Below, one piece after another: positions 2,601 to 45,235 of a DNA stretch of 64,000 bases. Every line of letters begins with the position of its first letter. The stretch's first letter is position 1. Both the position numbers and the translations under genes were made by a program. The DNA is taken from NCBI GenBank assembly GCA_963665845.2, contig OY762492.1, positions 2,144,001 to 2,208,000 of the forward strand. Direction: 5' to 3'. The notes below the pieces were generated by a model. It had not been told where the DNA came from, made no database searches, and saw only the letters and a list, made by a program, of their open reading frames with translations. The DNA is from Candidatus Poribacteria bacterium (lineage in GTDB: Bacteria; Poribacteria; WGA-4E; GCA-2687025).

Positions 2601-3911
2601 TCAGCCCTGAACCTGCGCCTCTGCCTCGTCCGCCTCTTTAGGTATGCCCGCTGTCAGGTTCTCATGCCCGTCCGCCGTAATGTGAACATCGTCCTCGATG
2701 CGGACGCCGACGCCGCGGTACGCCTCTGGGACGCTCTCGTCGTCTTCCGACACATACAGCCCAGGCTCTATCGTGAAGACGGCGCCCTCGCCCAGCAGAA
2801 ACGGCTCGCCGTCGATCTCCGCCGGGCCGGGGTCATGCACATCCAAGCCGAGATGATGCCCCGACCCGTGCATGTAGTATTGGCGGTAGGTTTTCTCTTC
2901 GATATGAGCGTCCACGCCGCGCCCGTCCAGCCAGCCCATCTCCACCATCGATTCGGTCAGCATTTTCACCGACATTTCATGGAGCTGTTTGAGCGGTATG
3001 CCGGGGCGCGCCGCTTCGATCATCGCCTTCTGGGCGCGCAGAACCGCCTCGTACATCTCGCGCTGGGCGGAGGAGAATTTGCCGTTGATCGGATAGGTCC
3101 GCGTCACATCGGAGGCGTAATGCCCGCGCATGGCGCCCGCGTCGATGAGCAGGACATCGCCGCCGCGCAGCGGGTCGTTGTTGTCGATGTAATGGAGGCA
3201 GGTGGAGTTGTTGCCGCCGCCGACGATGCTGGTATAGGCGGGTCCGTCGCCGCCTTTTTTTCTGAAGGCGCCGTCCAGCGCCGCTTCGATCTCGTATTCC
3301 CATCCGCCGGGGCGTATTTGCGGTACCGCTTCGGCGTACGCCTGTCGGGTGATTTCAGCCGCGCTGCGGATCATGTCGACCTCTTCGGGCGTTTTATGGA
3401 CGCGCAGGTTGGCGAGAAACCAGTCCAGGTCGCAGAATTCCAGCGCGCCGCGCCCCGACCTTCCGCTGGAGGTTGCCGATTCTCGGCATAGGCGGTGGAG
3501 CGTCTGTCCGCGCCGCGAGCTCATATCGGCGCGGAGGTAGATGCGCCATGCCAGATCGACAAGCGGCTTCAGTTTTTCTTCCAGTTCGTCTATGGGATGG
3601 GCGCTGTCGGCGTTGTATTCGTTGAGCGCGCCTTCGACGCCGGCGCGTTTTCCGTCCCACCGCTCGCTGACAGGGTCTTTCGGCGGGACGAAGAGCGTAT
3701 AGGAGCGTTCGCCGTTGTGTGAAAGCAGGACGGCGGCGGCGTTCGGTTCAGGAAAGCCTGTTAGGTAGAAAAAGCCGCTGTCTTGTCGAAACTTGACATG
3801 GTTTGGGGTTGTCGGTCCGGCGGAGACGATGAGGGCGGCGTTCTCGCCCATTTCGTCGAACGCTTTGCCGCGCCGCCCCGCAAAGAATTCAGATGTCAGT
3901 TTCGCGTTCAT
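2601..3911 (-). CDS. pepP: Xaa-Pro aminopeptidase (M24B)
   Basis: FRQDSGFFYLTGFPEP N-domain; LHY, LIDAG, ASDVTRT, HGSGHHLGLDVHD, TIEPGLY, GVRIEDDV. Confidence 0.93.
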   Translation of the reverse strand: MNAKLTSEFFAGRRGKAFDEMGENAALIVSAGPTTPNHVKFRQDSGFFYLTGFPEPNAAAVLLSHNGERSYTLFVPPKDPVSERWDGKRAGVEGALNEYNADSAHPIDELEEKLKPLVDLAWRIYLRADMSSRRGQTLHRLCRESATSSGRSGRGALEFCDLDWFLANLRVHKTPEEVDMIRSAAEITRQAYAEAVPQIRPGGWEYEIEAALDGAFRKKGGDGPAYTSIVGGGNNSTCLHYIDNNDPLRGGDVLLIDAGAMRGHYASDVTRTYPINGKFSSAQREMYEAVLRAQKAMIEAARPGIPLKQLHEMSVKMLTESMVEMGWLDGRGVDAHIEEKTYRQYYMHGSGHHLGLDVHDPGPAEIDGEPFLLGEGAVFTIEPGLYVSEDDESVPEAYRGVGVRIEDDVHITADGHENLTAGIPKEADEAEAQVQG

Positions 3912-19636: not shown

Positions 19637-19766
19637 ATGCCGCCTCCCGCCATGTTGACCGCTTCCGTTCCGATTGCCATTATAACGTTTTACCGCGCAG
19701 AATTGTTTACAAACGCGCTTTCGGATATGATACTCATGAGCGGGCGGCGCGGAAATCCCTTGAAGC

Positions 19767-19930
19767 TGACCTTAAGGCTTTAGTTGGGACATTCCGCCTG
19801 GCGAACGCGGACCTTGTTTGCGGCGCCTCTAGATTCCCGCTTACGCGGGAATGACGTCTGGTTTGGCGGCGCCTTTTCCCAAGAGTAAAGCTTTGTTTGT
19901 TCAACTGTTCCAACTTTAGGCATGAGGTCG
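19767..19930 (-). mobile_element. ~164-bp MITE-like element directly upstream of the kinase-Dna2 gene
   Basis: Ends TGACCTTAAGGCTTTAGTTGGGACA / TGTTCCAACTTTAGGCATGAGGTCG with an internal dRS3-like palindrome. Confidence 0.75.
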
Positions 19931-19942
19931 GTTGGAGGTTTT

Positions 19943-22900
19943 ATGAAACGAGCCAGAGGCGAATGGCTCAAAAGCGGACGGCTGCAGCTGGAGGCGCCGC
20001 TGGGCGAAGGCGCCTTCGGCGAAGTGTGGAAAGCGGTCGAGTATATCGGCTTCGGGCAGCGGGGCGAACTGGTGCGCCTTCGGGAAGCCGCCGTCAAATG
20101 CCTTCCGCCGCTGCATGACGAACGGGACGGCCCGCGCGTCATACAGGAGGCGCAGGGGCTGGCGGAACTTCAACATGAATCGATCCTTCGGCTTTACGAC
20201 GCCTTCGCCGACGCGGACGGAACCTATCTCGTTACCGAGCTGGCGACGGAGGGGCATCTCTGGCAGCACTTCGACGGCTCCGTTCCGACCGAGTCGGAGC
20301 TTCGGGAGCTGCTGTTTGCGGTCGGGCGCGGGCTGAATTATCTCCATGAGCAGGGGTATGTGCATGGCGATCTGAAGCCTGAAAACATTTTGGTCTCGGA
20401 GGGGCAGGATTACCAGCCGCGGTATCTGATTGCCGATTTTGGGCTGCGTTCGCTGATCGGAAGCCGGCATTTTCAAGGCACGGCGCCGTATATCGCCCCG
20501 GAGGCGTACTCCGCCAACGCGGGAGTCTTCACCGAACGCTCCGATGTGTACGCGCTCGGCGTCCTGCTGTATGAGGTTGCCAGCGGGTCGCGCCTCGCCG
20601 ACGCGCTTTCCGACAGCGAATTCGACGCCCTGCGCCAACGCAAACCGAACATGGACATCTTCAACGCGGCGATGGAACGCATCCGCGGGACGGTTCAAAA
20701 GATGCAGTGGCGCTCGCTGCAGCTGCCCTCCTTCTTGGGAACGATCCTGCAGTTTTGCCTGGACCCCAACCCGGATCGGCGCCCGTCGGCATGGGGGCTG
20801 ATGGAGCTGTGGGCGGCGTTCAGCAGGTCGCAAAGCGGCGTTCTGCAGATTGATCAAGAAGGCTCCGTTCAAAAGCCGGCGACCTACAAGGCTCCGTTCG
20901 CGCGCGTCGTCGACATCGAAGAAGACCTGACGAACCCGTATGGAACGGAGGCATGCGCCGCGCGGCTTGCCGCCGAAGACGGAGAATTCATGACCGTCTC
21001 CATCGACCGCGGCGTCAACCTGCCGATGTTTCAGGCGGTGGAACAGCTTAAAAACAGGGTGTCGGAACGCCCCGCTCTCGTATCGTTTTACAATCTGGAG
21101 CCGCTGGACATTGACCAGATGCGCTTCTCGGCGACGCGCAGCAGCTACGCCGTTGTGGAGCCGCTGCGCCTCATCGACGTGACCGAATTGAGCCAGAGCG
21201 CTTTTTGCCACCGCTCCTCGCTTCACCGCATTGCGGGGACGGGCGTTCAGTTGAGCGAGCCTCTCATGCGCGGTCAGGTTGCGCATGCGCTTTTTGCGGA
21301 CATGCTGCTGAATGCGCGGGTCGATTTTGACGAGGCATGGGAGGCGCGCCGCCCTGGCTGGAGCCTCGACTTTGCCTATCTGTTTGAAGACGACGCGCAG
21401 CTGGAGCGGTTTAAAAAGGAGGCGCGCCGCCATTTTGACAACATCAAAAAGGCGCTGCATGAGGAGCCAGCCTGGTACAGCCCGCGCCGTCATGTGGAGT
21501 CGATGCGCTGGTCGGCGGAGTTGGGTTTGCTGGGTCGGGTGGACGCTTTTTTCTTGGCTGAAGGCGGACGCGCGGCGGTGTATGAGCTGAAGGCGGGGCG
21601 CGTCGACAGCGGGGATGTGTTTCAGCTGCAGGCGTACGCGGCGATGTTGAGCGAGGATATGCGCGCCGCCGGGCGCCGTCCAGGAGAAACGGCGTCTCTT
21701 CGCGCGCGTCTTCTGTCGAGCGCGGACGGGCGCATGCGCGGCGCCTCTCCCGCGCCGAGGGCGAAGCTTGCCGCCGCTCGAAATCAAGCCGCGCATCTGC
21801 GCGAGCAGCTGATGGAGCCGCGACGCGCGGACGATCCTCTCCCGCCCGACTACCCGTTTTTCGGATACCATCCCGCAAAATGCAGCCACTGCTCAACCCA
21901 TTACCGGTTTCTTCATCAGGCATGCGAACGTTCAACGGCGCTGTTCGGCGAACGCGGCGACCTGGACAAGCCCGCCTTGACTCCCCTTGAACAGGACTAT
22001 TTCTGGCATGGCATCCGTCTCGCTCTCATCGAAGAGGAGGCGGTGCGGCGTCAGTATCTGCAGCCGCTTTTGAGCGCCATGCAGGCGCCCGGCAGCTTGA
22101 TGGAGGTAGAGATTCCGCGCGGAGAGCGGCGCATCGAAGGGGCGCGCCTGGCGAACCGCCAAGACTCGCGGCTTGAGTTTCAGTTTGAACCGGGCATGGC
22201 GGAATTCAAGGAGGGGGACGAGGCGATTGCGCACCGCGGCGACCTTCGCCGCTGGCATGAAACGATGCGCGGCACGGTCGCCGAGGCGTCCGGCGGGACG
22301 CTGGTCGTTGAAACGCATGAAGCGCGCGCCTTTCAAGACGCCGCCGACCTGCCGAAAGACGGCTGGGTCGTGGAACGGTTCCCGCGCTTCTACCGCTCCG
22401 ATCTGCTCCGCCGGGCGCTTTATCGGTTCATATCGTCGCGCAACGAGGCGATGAAAACGCTCGTTCTGGAGGGGCTTATGCCGAAGCGTCAGGGGCTGCT
22501 TTTCTCGGCGGCAAAGCCGGACGCCCTGCGCCTTTCGATGAAAAACCGCCTGAACGCGCAGCAGAGCGCCGCCCTGTTGAGCGGACTGGACGAGAACGGC
22601 TTTTTGTCGATCACCGGACCGCCCGGAACCGGCAAAACGATGACGATACACGCCATCATCGAGACGCATGTTCGGCAGAACGCGCGCGTCCTCGCCGCCG
22701 CCGTGACAAACAACGCCATCGACAACATCGTGGAGCGGTGGATCGAAAGCGGGCATGGCGCCGCCGGTTTTGAGCCGTTTTTCCGCTTTGGGCTTCACTC
22801 CTCTATGACCGATCAATTCAAAGAAAGCTTGAAACGGCTCAACGTTGACGGACGGCGCATGTTTGCGAAGGAGGCGGGCGCCGCGTTTGACAGCCTCGCC

Positions 22901-23902
22901 GAACTGCGCGCGCATTTAGAGTCGACGCGGCTGCTTCTCGGCACGGCGCATTCGCTGCTGGAGTCGCCATGGGTCGCTCAAGAAAACCCGGACGGCTCCC
23001 CCCCGTTCGACCTTGTCATCGTGGACGAGGCGACGCAGATGCCCGAGCCGCTCGCGGCGGCGCTGTTGACGCTCGGCAAAAAGGCGATCCTGGTCGGCGA
23101 CGAGGAGCAGCTCGGGCCGGTCTGCCTTTCGTCGTTTGACGCGCGGCATGCGGAGATGCCGGAGTCGCTGCGGGAAATCGGAATATCGGGGCTGGACAAG
23201 TCGCTGTTTGAGCGGTTGAACGCGCTTTTGAAGGAGCGCGGCGGCGAGGAGGGGCTGGTCTTTCTCTCGCGCCAGTATCGAATGCATCCCGCTATCAGCG
23301 AGTGGGCGTCCGAACAGTTTTACGGCGGACGCCTGGAGACCGCGGACGAAGCGCAAGCCCGCCTCCCAGAGCTGGAACGGGCGGCGGAGCAGCCGGGGTG
23401 GGAACTCCTGGCGCGCGTCTTGGACCCGTCCAGCCCGTTCGTGTTTTTAGACATACCGGGCGGAAGCGGGGACATCCCCAACATGAACAAAAAAGAGGCG
23501 GAGATTGCCGCCCTGCTGACGCTCGCCATGTCGCGCCTCGGCATGAACGATGTCGGATGCATCACGCCGTACCGGAACCAGCAGGCGGAACTGCGCCGTC
23601 AGCTGCGCCGTTTCAACCTGTCCGCGGAATGCGGCACGGTGGACGCTTTCCAGGGGCGTGAAAAGACGGTGGTTATTTTGTCAACAGCGCGGCGCGACAG
23701 GCTCACCTCTTTTCTGGGCGAAAGGCGGCGGCTGAATGTGAGCGTCACCCGCGCGCGCCGAAAATGCGTCATACTCGGAAGCCTCGCCGTCTTGAGAGAC
23801 CACCCGCTGCTATGGCGGCTCGCCGAAAGGGAAGATTGCCGGCGCGAACGGGCGGAGCCGTCCGACCTGCGCCGAGAACTTGGACTGGAGCCGAACGCAT
23901 GA
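19943..23902 (+). CDS. Ser/Thr protein kinase fused to a Dna2-like Fe-S nuclease and SF1 (UPF1/Dna2-type) helicase
   Basis: SD GGAGG before ATG 19943. Kinase: LGEGAFGEVW, AAVK, HGDLKPEN, DFG, GTAPYIAPE, SDVYALG. Nuclease: FCHRS, RGQVAHALF, WSAELGLLGRVD, ELKAG, QLQAY, CSHC..C. Helicase: GPPGTGKT, TNNAIDN, DEATQ, GDEEQLGP, QYRMHP, TPYRNQ, TVDAFQGREK, RLNVSVTRAR. Confidence 0.9.
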   Translation: MKRARGEWLKSGRLQLEAPLGEGAFGEVWKAVEYIGFGQRGELVRLREAAVKCLPPLHDERDGPRVIQEAQGLAELQHESILRLYDAFADADGTYLVTELATEGHLWQHFDGSVPTESELRELLFAVGRGLNYLHEQGYVHGDLKPENILVSEGQDYQPRYLIADFGLRSLIGSRHFQGTAPYIAPEAYSANAGVFTERSDVYALGVLLYEVASGSRLADALSDSEFDALRQRKPNMDIFNAAMERIRGTVQKMQWRSLQLPSFLGTILQFCLDPNPDRRPSAWGLMELWAAFSRSQSGVLQIDQEGSVQKPATYKAPFARVVDIEEDLTNPYGTEACAARLAAEDGEFMTVSIDRGVNLPMFQAVEQLKNRVSERPALVSFYNLEPLDIDQMRFSATRSSYAVVEPLRLIDVTELSQSAFCHRSSLHRIAGTGVQLSEPLMRGQVAHALFADMLLNARVDFDEAWEARRPGWSLDFAYLFEDDAQLERFKKEARRHFDNIKKALHEEPAWYSPRRHVESMRWSAELGLLGRVDAFFLAEGGRAAVYELKAGRVDSGDVFQLQAYAAMLSEDMRAAGRRPGETASLRARLLSSADGRMRGASPAPRAKLAAARNQAAHLREQLMEPRRADDPLPPDYPFFGYHPAKCSHCSTHYRFLHQACERSTALFGERGDLDKPALTPLEQDYFWHGIRLALIEEEAVRRQYLQPLLSAMQAPGSLMEVEIPRGERRIEGARLANRQDSRLEFQFEPGMAEFKEGDEAIAHRGDLRRWHETMRGTVAEASGGTLVVETHEARAFQDAADLPKDGWVVERFPRFYRSDLLRRALYRFISSRNEAMKTLVLEGLMPKRQGLLFSAAKPDALRLSMKNRLNAQQSAALLSGLDENGFLSITGPPGTGKTMTIHAIIETHVRQNARVLAAAVTNNAIDNIVERWIESGHGAAGFEPFFRFGLHSSMTDQFKESLKRLNVDGRRMFAKEAGAAFDSLAELRAHLESTRLLLGTAHSLLESPWVAQENPDGSPPFDLVIVDEATQMPEPLAAALLTLGKKAILVGDEEQLGPVCLSSFDARHAEMPESLREIGISGLDKSLFERLNALLKERGGEEGLVFLSRQYRMHPAISEWASEQFYGGRLETADEAQARLPELERAAEQPGWELLARVLDPSSPFVFLDIPGGSGDIPNMNKKEAEIAALLTLAMSRLGMNDVGCITPYRNQQAELRRQLRRFNLSAECGTVDAFQGREKTVVILSTARRDRLTSFLGERRRLNVSVTRARRKCVILGSLAVLRDHPLLWRLAEREDCRRERAEPSDLRRELGLEPNA

Positions 23903-24411
23903 CGAAGTGGTGGATTCTGCTGGCGGCGGCCGCTGTCGCCGAGATCTCCTTCGGCGTCTATATCTGGTCGTACCGCCCCGCGCCGCCGACCGAAGCGGTT
24001 TATGCGTCCATGGAGGCGGCGCAGGAGTCGGACCTGGACGCGCTGGACGCCGTTCTCCGCGCGAGAGGCGCCGCGTCCAACCCGCGCGCCGTCTGGACAT
24101 CCTATATCGGCGCGTTATACATGGAAGAATATGAGGCGGCGTACAGCATGTTGTCGCGGCGTTCGCGGGCGGCGTTTGAGGCGGCGGGCGGTGTTGACCT
24201 GTTTAAAAAAACGCGCCGCGCCGACCCGACCCGCTTCGATCTCGGCAAAACATTGACGCTGGCGCAGGAGGAGAAAACGGCGCTCATCGCCGCGCGTGAG
24301 TATGATTCCCATGCATGGATCAAGGCGCGCCTGCGGCAAGAAGGCGGACAATGGCGCATCGAAACGCGCCCCTCGCCCGACAAGAAGCGCGCCGTTTATC
24401 CTTACCGCTAA
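23899..24411 (+). CDS. Hypothetical membrane-anchored protein (possible NTF2-like/DUF4878-like fold)
   Basis: ATGA overlap with the kinase-helicase stop; N-terminal hydrophobic helix; YEAAYSMLS and LRQEGGQWRI patterns. Confidence 0.65.
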   Translation: MTKWWILLAAAAVAEISFGVYIWSYRPAPPTEAVYASMEAAQESDLDALDAVLRARGAASNPRAVWTSYIGALYMEEYEAAYSMLSRRSRAAFEAAGGVDLFKKTRRADPTRFDLGKTLTLAQEEKTALIAAREYDSHAWIKARLRQEGGQWRIETRPSPDKKRAVYPYR

Positions 24412-24424
24412 AACGCCCGCCGAC

Positions 24425-25261
24425 TCACAGACTTAGACGCTCGCCGCATTTTAAGACGCGGTACGGCTGCCCGATGCGTTCGCATTCGTCCGCGAATTTG
24501 CTAGGCGAAACCGTATTGAACTCAAACATATCGTAATGGCATGGGACGGCGAGCGACGCGCCCGTCTCTCGGCTAAGGCGCGCCGCCTCGACGCCGGACA
24601 GGTTCCCGGCGACGCGCCGAGCAGGGTTCCTCCCGTTGATGGGGAGCAGCGCCGCGTCGATACGCCAACCGCTGAGCCAATCAAGCATGCCGTCGTATAG
24701 AACCGTGTCGCCGCTGTGGTAGACAACTTTGCCGCCCGCTTCGATCACATAGCCCAGATGCGTATATCTGCCGTCCGCGTCCGTTTCGAGCGTCTCATGG
24801 GCGGCGGGGACGGCGTGTATTCGGAAGCCCGCCGCGTCCGCTGTTTTGCCGGCGTCGATGCCTGTTAGCCGTTCGGGCGGGCATTGAAGCCGTTCGGCGG
24901 CGAAGGCGCGGTTCGCTTCAGGGACGATGACGCGCAGCCCCGCGTTGACGCGCATGAGCGGCAGAAGCGTCTCCGCGTCCAGATGGTCGGTGTGGTTATG
25001 GCTGGATGTTACGGCGTCGATGAAGTTGAGCCGCGCGGGGTTGATAGCCCGCTCGGTCATGCGGACATGCGGCTTGTCGGTCTGGGCGTATTTTTTGGTG
25101 AGCGAGTCGGACAGGTACGGGTCGATGAGCAGGCGCGATCCGCCCGCTTGGAGCAGATACCCGCTCTGCCCAAGCCACCACAGGTGGAGGTTGCCGCCGC
25201 CGCGGTTCGCGTCTCGTATGTCGTTTAAAAGGGCGTCGTCTTTCAGATGCGGCTTGATCAT
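24425..25261 (-). CDS. MBL-fold metallo-hydrolase (UlaG-like)
   Basis: SD GGAGG before MIKPHL; WWLGQSGY, IDPYLSDS, SHNHTDHLD, YHSGDT, LLPING, PCHYDMF. Confidence 0.9.
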   Translation of the reverse strand: MIKPHLKDDALLNDIRDANRGGGNLHLWWLGQSGYLLQAGGSRLLIDPYLSDSLTKKYAQTDKPHVRMTERAINPARLNFIDAVTSSHNHTDHLDAETLLPLMRVNAGLRVIVPEANRAFAAERLQCPPERLTGIDAGKTADAAGFRIHAVPAAHETLETDADGRYTHLGYVIEAGGKVVYHSGDTVLYDGMLDWLSGWRIDAALLPINGRNPARRVAGNLSGVEAARLSRETGASLAVPCHYDMFEFNTVSPSKFADECERIGQPYRVLKCGERLSL

Positions 25262-44332: not shown

Positions 44333-45235
44333 TTAATCGCCTTCTTCATTTACAGAAAAATAGTCTCGGTTTATCTGCTTAATGTCGTAAGATTTTTGCG
44401 TCTGAACGCCAATGCCGTTCTCGATCATCAGCTTCACAAGTTGCTTGCCGTCAATAAGGACGATCCTTTTATCGCTTCGTTTCGCTTCTTCTCTACATTG
44501 TTTGGAGAAGTTTGCTGTTGTGATAAAAAAGCCCTTTTGCGCGCCCTGGACGCCCAAGGATCCCGCAAACTCTCGAACAAGTTTGGGGCTAACGGTCGCG
44601 TCTTGCCGCTTTGCTTGAACATAAATCATGTCGAGACCCAGTTTGTCCTCTTTGATGGTCCCGTCAATTCCGCCGTCGCCGCTGCGCCCTACGGCTTCAG
44701 CGTCCGCTCGAGAGCCGCCGTACCCAAGTTCCACCAGCACATCCAAAACCAGCTCTTCAAAAAATTCTGGGGGATTGTCCATAATGCGCTGTAAAAGTTC
44801 CGTTTCAAGCCGTTCTTGAATCGTTCGATAACTGCGCTCAATCGCAACTTCAGGCGCTTCAGCCGACTGCGATTCTTCAGGCGCTTCATCGGGCAACGAT
44901 TCTTCAGAATCTGCCGATTCTAGAACGGGCGAATCGATTTTGGCGACCACTCCGGGCTTGATTTTCAGAAGACGCCCCGACTTAACCAACCGATAGGCAA
45001 CGTCATAGACAACCATTTTCCAAACAAGGCTACCGCTTTTATATTTGGCATTTCGCTGCTCATCTGTCAGGCTGAATCGATCTGCAAATTGATCCGCAAT
45101 GTCCTTGGTATGAATGCCGGCGGCAGGATAATTAAAATCGATCAAAGCTTGTTCCACGACAGAATTCGCCGGGAATTCCATCGGTTCTTCTTCATTCGTG
45201 TCTGGGTTGAAGATCCTTCGCGTCGTCGTATCCAT
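44333..45235 (-). CDS. mrr: Mrr-family (type IV) restriction endonuclease
   Basis: N-terminal winged-helix-like region (FSLTDEQRN); FFEELVLDVLVELGYGG, SGDGGIDG, DKLGLDMIYVQAKR, KGFFITTANFS, IVLIDG; visibly more AT-rich. Confidence 0.9.
   Translation of the reverse strand: MDTTTRRIFNPDTNEEEPMEFPANSVVEQALIDFNYPAAGIHTKDIADQFADRFSLTDEQRNAKYKSGSLVWKMVVYDVAYRLVKSGRLLKIKPGVVAKIDSPVLESADSEESLPDEAPEESQSAEAPEVAIERSYRTIQERLETELLQRIMDNPPEFFEELVLDVLVELGYGGSRADAEAVGRSGDGGIDGTIKEDKLGLDMIYVQAKRQDATVSPKLVREFAGSLGVQGAQKGFFITTANFSKQCREEAKRSDKRIVLIDGKQLVKLMIENGIGVQTQKSYDIKQINRDYFSVNEEGD

Follow-up and report, generated by a model that had tools for sequence, protein, structure and literature searches.

What role would a protein kinase joined in one chain to a complete Dna2-like nuclease-helicase play in a bacterial cell? 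This question is raised by a gene at positions 19943–23902 (+ strand) of a 64,000-nucleotide stretch (the window) of contig OY762492.1 from Candidatus Poribacteria bacterium (assembly GCA_963665845.2). The gene is a single unbroken open reading frame (ORF) of 1319 amino acids (aa), running from an ATG at 19943 to a TGA at 23902, and the ORF itself, Pfam matches, alignment and a predicted model delineate a kinase, an OB fold, an Fe-S nuclease, a stalk with a beta-barrel and a superfamily 1B (SF1B) helicase, in that order. An initial annotation had described one uninterrupted ORF with three enzyme modules and intact motifs. All of the motifs named there were found and the kinase, nuclease and helicase stood, with the OB fold (aa ~315–405) and the stalk and beta-barrel (aa ~681–843) having been overlooked. 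By architecture and residues the protein belongs to the Dna2 family, of which the kinase-Dna2 fusion is a conserved and apparently undescribed variant, and to judge from its sequence it likely links the processing of single-stranded DNA (ssDNA) ends to phosphorylation signaling. The reading favored here, with a probability of about 0.5, is that of a Dna2-type nuclease-helicase with an N-terminal kinase, acting as a core genome-maintenance enzyme with built-in kinase signaling.

The nuclease (aa 406–672; 21158–21958, + strand as for all modules of the gene) was assigned from alignment, the family profile and the available text of PMC4716839 as a PD-(D/E)xK enzyme with the four-cysteine iron-staple layout. 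Its motifs are C422, H448, D534, E548/K550, Q561xxxY565 and C647-x2-C650-x10-C661. Residues H448, D534, K550 and Q561 and the four cysteines were invariant in 8/8 homologs, with E548 present in seven and replaced by D in one, and in the family-profile alignment H448, D534, E548, K550 and Q561 correspond to H164, D278, E299, K301 and Q314 of mouse Dna2 (PMC4716839, accessible part). The helicase (aa 870–1300; 22550–23842), identified by Pfam, alignment and profile, is an SF1B enzyme of the Upf1/Dna2 family with two RecA domains and intact motifs (Walker A K898, DE1028–1029) which were invariant across the eight aligned homologs. Pfam matched Dna2 at aa 399–503 (28.1 bits against a cut-off of 22.4) as well as AAA_11 and AAA_12. 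The OB fold (20885–21157), placed by the model, alignment and the same partial source at the position of the Dna2 OB domain (PMC4716839), is the least conserved module of the fusion. The helical stalk and beta-barrel (21983–22471), as in Dna2, Upf1 and IGHMBP2, were recognized from the model and structure comparison.

To sequence search the middle region alone gave no significant match in the PDB, and a 130-sequence family profile had mouse Dna2 as its best PDB match (535 bits), with IGHMBP2 at 342 bits. A structure model of aa 306–1319 was built from 65 sequences (pLDDT 89.9, pTM 0.92), an earlier model from six sequences (pLDDT 51) not being used. Foldseek placed mouse Dna2 at the top (E 6e-46, TM 0.70), with IGHMBP2 and Upf1 at a TM of about 0.43, and VIA-align superimposed 886 of 1014 residues on Dna2 (rmsd 4.8, Z 24.5), the sole match covering the whole model. 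As modeled, the body has the full Dna2 layout of OB fold, four-cysteine nuclease, stalk, barrel and SF1B helicase. It resembles eukaryotic Dna2 (mouse, PDB 5EAN/5EAW/5EAX; PMC4716839, accessible part) in domain order, in the five active-site residues and in this whole-body structural match. The fusion differs in being bacterial, about 20% identical and lineage-restricted, in its cysteine spacing of C-x2-C-x10-C, and in having an N-terminal kinase where Dna2 has an RPA-binding helix.

The kinase (aa 12–295; 19976–20827) is of the Hanks type and of the non-RD class, with HGD as its catalytic motif, as supported by Pfam (Pkinase, aa 17–285, E 3e-39), the eight-homolog alignment and the ratio of nonsynonymous to synonymous substitution (dN/dS). 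It contains GEGAFG, AAVK52, HGD143LKPEN148, D165FG and APE187, and residues K52, E69, D143, K145, N148, D165, E187, D201 and R280 were invariant in 8/8 aligned homologs. Every hallmark of an active Hanks kinase is thereby present: beta3 Lys, alphaC Glu, catalytic Asp, Lys and Asn, DFG, APE, the subdomain IX Asp and the subdomain XI Arg. A lysine of the K145 type indicates Ser/Thr rather than Tyr specificity. The kinase therefore looks catalytically intact from its residues, and its annotation includes neither a transmembrane nor a sensor domain.

The start at 19943 is preceded by a GGAGG ribosome site and is the same in the related genome G001. The ATG at 19922 chosen by the ORF finder was set aside, as it sits within a repeat element. 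The initial annotation had taken the fusion to be genuine, and misassembly was ruled out by assembled sequencing runs and by full-length fusions in relatives of other genera. A contig of run X1, possibly the window's own source, covers 19827–24500 with 0 differences, and a contig of run X5, a sponge metagenome from a second study, covers 19932–24500 with 200 substitutions and 0 gaps.

The fusion was searched for in 41 genomes, namely that of the window (G000, 90% complete), seven others of its family and 33 others of the class. It was found in 7/8 genomes of this one Poribacteria family, with relatives 47–94% identical, and the 33 other class genomes gave single-domain matches only. One family copy is split across two contigs and one is frameshifted in a G run; the latter (G004, L024 about 3130–3150) has a single frameshift at the Gly loop of the kinase with the remainder of the gene intact, reflecting an assembly error or a recent loss. 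The fusion-negative genome, G002, is 64% complete and is also without rpoB, the PknB-like kinase or any Pkinase. A profile of the middle region matched five of 151 phylum genomes, all in the family of the fusion. With the kinase profile seven of 61 class genomes were matched, again in that family only (0/53 outside it). A Pkinase of any kind occurs in seven family genomes, and in six of them the count is exactly two, one being PknB-like and the other the fusion, which is single-copy in the family. The relatives' proteins are labeled 'Candidatus Poribacteria bacterium' and named 'protein kinase', 'AAA domain-containing protein' or 'hypothetical protein', and 'Dna2' at JGI.

The fusion tree and that of rpoB had the same unrooted topology over six genomes (RpoB 69–97% identical), and distances were correlated (Spearman 0.92, over 15 pairs that are non-independent). 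The guanine-cytosine (GC) content of the fusion, overall and at third codon positions (GC3), resembles that of neighboring core genes, and no match to it was found in 72,556 plasmids, 50,697 phages or viral contigs. The fusion is vertically inherited within the family, like a single-copy core gene, and is under purifying selection, kinase included. In two genome pairs dN/dS was 0.155 and 0.072 for the kinase and 0.09–0.20 for the other domains, the range over all domains being 0.07–0.20. On the kinase values relaxed selection, named by the initial annotation as a finding that would refute its reading, was rejected.

The neighbors of the gene are housekeeping genes. In G000 they include ubiD/ubiE/ubiX, an outer-membrane barrel and a metallo-beta-lactamase-fold gene, and in other genera ctaA, an ABC transporter, nuo and a TPR-peptidase. 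An upstream membrane gene and the downstream TPR-peptidase are common to G003, G005, G006 and G007, which points to an old and fixed position of the fusion. A defense island was rejected for G000 and for the flanks of six relatives. The enrichment in defense genes suggested for checking by the initial annotation was not borne out by PADLOC, which among 18 flanking proteins gave five generic domain matches (methyltransferase, ABC-ATPase, helix-turn-helix, TPR) and none resembling a system partner. No DNA methylase was seen among the scanned flanking genes, the nearby methyltransferase being UbiE, and across 33 scanned ORFs of the window the sole defense-type gene was a lone Mrr, 20 kb from the fusion. 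This Mrr-type restriction endonuclease gene (44333–45235) lies within a lower-GC stretch.

Among described systems, the Geobacillus protein Bad is likewise a bacterial Fe-S nuclease joined to an SF1B helicase with a sporadic distribution (PMC7430649, accessible part). According to that text its physiological role is unknown, its neighbor is a methyltransferase and it has been proposed to be a restriction subunit; an extra central domain is described and no kinase is reported in the part available. The fusion, by comparison with this description, aligns to Dna2 over most of its body and has no DNA methylase neighbor. Type I Mokosh MkoA resembles the fusion in carrying a Ser/Thr kinase and an Upf1-like (COG1112) helicase in one chain (10.1101/2022.05.11.491447, accessible text), and its PADLOC model (PDLC03920; 300 bits, in two stretches) was the top PADLOC match of the fusion. 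The nuclease of Mokosh, as given there, is a phospholipase D (PLD) enzyme, encoded by a separate gene in type I or located C-terminally in type II. The fusion instead has its Fe-S PD-(D/E)xK nuclease between kinase and helicase, a region that matches no PADLOC model, and has no adjacent mkoB. Identity with Mokosh was rejected for want of a PLD partner (10.1101/2022.05.11.491447; 10.1101/2022.12.12.520048, accessible texts).

A third relative is the family NF040671, PLuB_AAA ('PLuB system helicase-like protein'), whose members above the cut-off have the same body with a degenerate kinase-like N-terminus, unlike the catalytically complete kinase of the fusion. Membership was rejected, as the fusion scored 354 bits against a cut-off of 999, within the range of kinase-less Dna2-like proteins (204–389). 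The name of the family says nothing of a kinase, a nuclease or a function, no paper on PLuB_AAA was found in the open literature, and the two NCBIfam accessions adjacent to NF040671 are unrelated families. PLuB presumably stands for Persicimonas, Lujinxingia and Bradymonas, which is a guess that no search shows. The earlier statement that the architecture belongs to no described system thus holds for the catalytically complete form; the kinase-dead form has an NCBIfam model.

The nearest printed statement found concerns the DLHK pseudokinases, in which a kinase fold is linked to 'DEAD-like helicase and DNA2' domains with no transmembrane region; all DLHK are without the beta3 lysine and they are mainly proteobacterial (PMC12599244; 10.1101/2025.01.12.632604, accessible texts). 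The fusion is not a DLHK, since it keeps K52, D165-F-G and N148 and the DLHK definition, as far as those texts give it, involves loss of the VAIK lysine and a degraded DFG. The initial annotation had also drawn an analogy to PglW of BREX/Pgl, which did not survive: NF033442 scored only 48.8 bits against a cut-off of 990, over the kinase part only, and no pgl/brx operon is present, making MkoA the better analogy. We take the 'DNA2' of the DLHK definition to be the short name used in CDD for COG1112, a helicase-only entry, with a nuclease not necessarily included. The accessible parts of PMC5704561, PMC11090510 and PMC12191111 contained nothing on a kinase-Dna2 fusion. More broadly, the open literature yielded no account of a complete Dna2 to which an active kinase is fused, as judged mostly by titles and abstract openings and with paywalled articles, supplements on bioRxiv and the comment in NCBIfam outside this scope.

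To place the fusion in a wider family, the middle-region profile was run against 1.84 billion proteins, giving 526, of which the best 150 were taken; 120 proteins of at least 900 aa were then examined for an N-terminal module. The HGD kinase of the window type was seen in four of these and an intact HRD kinase, of the RD class, in 12; others had a degenerate kinase, a NERD domain or neither. A NERD nuclease-related domain heads the Dna2-like proteins P0071, P0103, P0110, P0116, P0138 and P0109. A second search, with an alignment of 21 RD-kinase and degenerate-kinase sequences as query, returned 50 proteins, 44 of them full-length with Pkinase, PDDEXK_1 and AAA_11/12 (10 of these in the query). 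In these 44, which form a second clade with an RD kinase, the four cysteines and the kinase, nuclease and helicase residues vary little or not at all, and two matches bear the taxon labels Myxococcales or Bradymonadia. The architecture is not unique to the window, and occurs in two or three bacterial lineages in all. A profile-profile match between the window family and the wider RD/PLuB clade extended over 1209 columns. Six of 28 scanned proteins scored above the PLuB_AAA cut-off, and their consensus is without the catalytic aspartate and beta3 lysine while the nuclease and helicase residues are kept.

In a quick body tree of 81 rows, for which 15 of 59 similar ~1110-aa proteins were retained, the window clade forms one long starred branch, and the proteins with an RD or a dead kinase group on a second. 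In the kinase tree the kinases of the window, of the RD clade and of P0108 fall apart from one another. An approximately unbiased (AU) test did not reject window and RD as one clade (p 0.64), the constrained tree scoring higher, and in both kinases strand beta2 is followed by an insertion lying between A-x-E and L-R-x-V-A-x-K, which hints that the window and RD fusions may have a single origin. The kinase fusion P0108, whose kinase is also present in P0072, falls in a clade of five NERD proteins and is a probable separate fusion event. A further sequence, P0006, is a window-type fusion fragment in which the nuclease stops partway and fibronectin-III-like repeats follow, and is probably a chimeric assembly. 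Pattern scans of genome and metagenome collections for generic helicase and kinase motifs gave no fusion locus among the matches listed (L063 was rejected, its kinase and helicase being separate), and atlas searches gave only Dna2-like or kinase-plus-helicase clusters. A survey of 401 genomes from the phylum of two Myxococcus-labeled records found no PLuB/RD-type gene, with two candidates per genome scored and no positive control matched, so that it is uninformative.

How such a protein might work can be envisaged from Dna2 and Bad biochemistry (PMC4716839; PMC7430649, accessible parts). By analogy, the body would thread free 5' ssDNA ends or flaps through a nuclease tunnel and trim them, with the helicase as a 5'-3' motor and ssDNA-dependent ATPase and an Fe-S cluster in the nuclease. 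The kinase lies N-terminal to the OB domain, a domain that adjoins the tunnel entrance in Dna2, and engagement of DNA may control the kinase, in one direction or the other, so that an active kinase would phosphorylate itself or replication, repair or division proteins. As the dead-kinase PLuB relatives keep the nuclease and helicase residues, phosphotransfer is probably not needed for the nuclease-helicase to run, and the kinase would serve for regulation or output and not as the driving part. One tentative extension, which we consider doubtful, is a one-protein DNA-structure checkpoint in which loading of Dna2 on a 5' flap or resected end would activate its own kinase, leading to phosphorylation of replication and division proteins. 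Equally tentative is the further proposal that this checkpoint kinase, one of the two Hanks kinases of these cells, is shared with or was re-invented by Bradymonadia/Myxococcota and a third lineage. A parallel exists in yeast, where the N-terminus of Dna2 activates the Mec1/ATR checkpoint kinase.

The core-gene pattern is what favors genome maintenance over the two other explanations considered. Presence in 7/8 family genomes, congruence with rpoB, purifying selection, housekeeping flanks and the absence of matches to mobile elements are all on its side, and of the two roles raised by the initial annotation, damage signaling fits this vertical, housekeeping pattern better than defense as far as context goes, whereas abortive defense has no contextual support. 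Several observations weigh against maintenance. The closest tested bacterial architecture, and the best PADLOC match, is MkoA, a tested defense protein, and bacterial Dna2-like bodies swap their N-termini (none, NERD, kinase or dead kinase). Swapping of N-terminal modules is typical of conflict systems. The fusion was not found with the middle-region profile in the 146 other phylum genomes, and hence cannot be a general requirement for repair. In 7/8 genomes there is a RecB/AddA-type nuclease gene (about 1070–1160 aa), with a shorter open frame in G002, so that replacement of RecBCD/AddAB by the fusion is unsupported, and RecA was present in 5/5 genomes. No SOS-like box was found, as a simple and crude exact-match count gave no palindrome in common between the sequences upstream of the fusion and those upstream of recA or lexA, the lexA-like gene of G000 itself scoring below its family cut-off. 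VIA-align also gives helicase-only structures a higher Z than Dna2 (33 versus 24.5), the nuclease being covered by Dna2 alone.

The first rival is a single-gene, vertically kept anti-phage or anti-plasmid system, Mokosh type I-like with a built-in nuclease, which we regard as a serious minority possibility. Recognition of phage replication intermediates would fall to its helicase and their cleavage to the Dna2 nuclease, with the kinase either arming the enzyme or bringing the cell to a halt. The tested activity of MkoA (10.1101/2022.05.11.491447, accessible text), the proposed restriction role of Bad beside its methyltransferase (PMC7430649, likewise), a sporadic distribution across phyla and the swappable N-termini are in keeping with it. 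The same can be said of the kinase class, as non-RD kinases are linked to immune receptors in eukaryotes. It is harder to reconcile with near-universal, single-copy, rpoB-congruent inheritance, with the lack of a defense island and with a nuclease region unlike any PADLOC model; furthermore, the MkoB model (PDLC03922) had 0 matches in G000 and G001, and the weak PLD-domain matches in 6/8 family genomes lie on other contigs, none adjacent to the fusion. An unlikely explanation is that kinase and Dna2 body are merely tethered, the kinase answering another cue or the body being an RNA or R-loop helicase like Upf1/IGHMBP2, with no DNA-triggered phosphorylation. The helicase part is indeed nearest the IGHMBP2/Upf1 fold by Z-score, and kinase-less and kinase-dead relatives retain all nuclease and helicase residues; set against this, no free-standing form of the kinase emerged (of 71 matches one was close, and it is probably truncated by its 1.3-kb contig, besides the empty class genomes noted above), and two distant lineages have retained the fusion with no change in either active site.

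No physiological role is known for bacterial Dna2-like enzymes, and to our knowledge no bacterial kinase reads DNA structure directly, unlike the eukaryotic checkpoint kinases. With its three active sites separable within one soluble polypeptide, the fusion makes the question of a DNA-reading kinase directly testable in vitro and in E. coli, and its relatives form a comparison series on one body, with an active non-RD kinase, an active RD kinase, a dead kinase, NERD or no module. Should defense prove correct, the fusion would amount to a Mokosh-like system made of one gene, set apart by its nuclease and by being inherited, unusually, as a core gene. A lead to a replication or repair role of bacterial Dna2 comes from two of four kinase-less loci, both deltaproteobacterial (L043 7770–14794, L040 7686–14936), where the gene lies directly upstream of polA and cinA and downstream of radical SAM and TIM-barrel genes; it is 44% identical to P0029 of a neighboring clade. 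The two loci share gene order and were counted as one event, the other two lying among metabolic genes.

Some further features of the locus should be noted. An unannotated membrane protein ending in CC...CxxC is encoded directly upstream of the fusion in two genera (L025 7209–7961, L022 7241–7921), with a homolog elsewhere in G000. A 170-aa ORF with a hydrophobic N-terminus (23899–24411) overlaps the stop codon of the fusion and has no Pfam, NCBIfam or PADLOC match. Its homolog adjoins the fusion in G001, lies 2 kb off on the opposite strand in G004, and was not beside the fusion in the other genera looked at. Contigs of one metatranscriptome covered 20/30 bins at low depth, which is no evidence for expression because a silent-region control was absent. 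Upstream of the gene, three overlapping sigma70-like promoter matches (19655–19734, + strand) were found against 0.1 expected, these being consensus matches only. Between them and the start codon lies the repeat element mentioned above, a 172-bp high-copy sequence (19760–19931, no strand assigned) which is not part of the system and, like the rest of the window, had no Rfam match. It has terminal inverted arms and an internal palindrome (folding z −4.1), and it occurs in 137 copies of at least 140 bp in the window's genome (849 blastn hits in total). As it is missing at this site in the close relatives G001 and runs X5 and X6, it is a miniature mobile element inserted ahead of the fusion gene.

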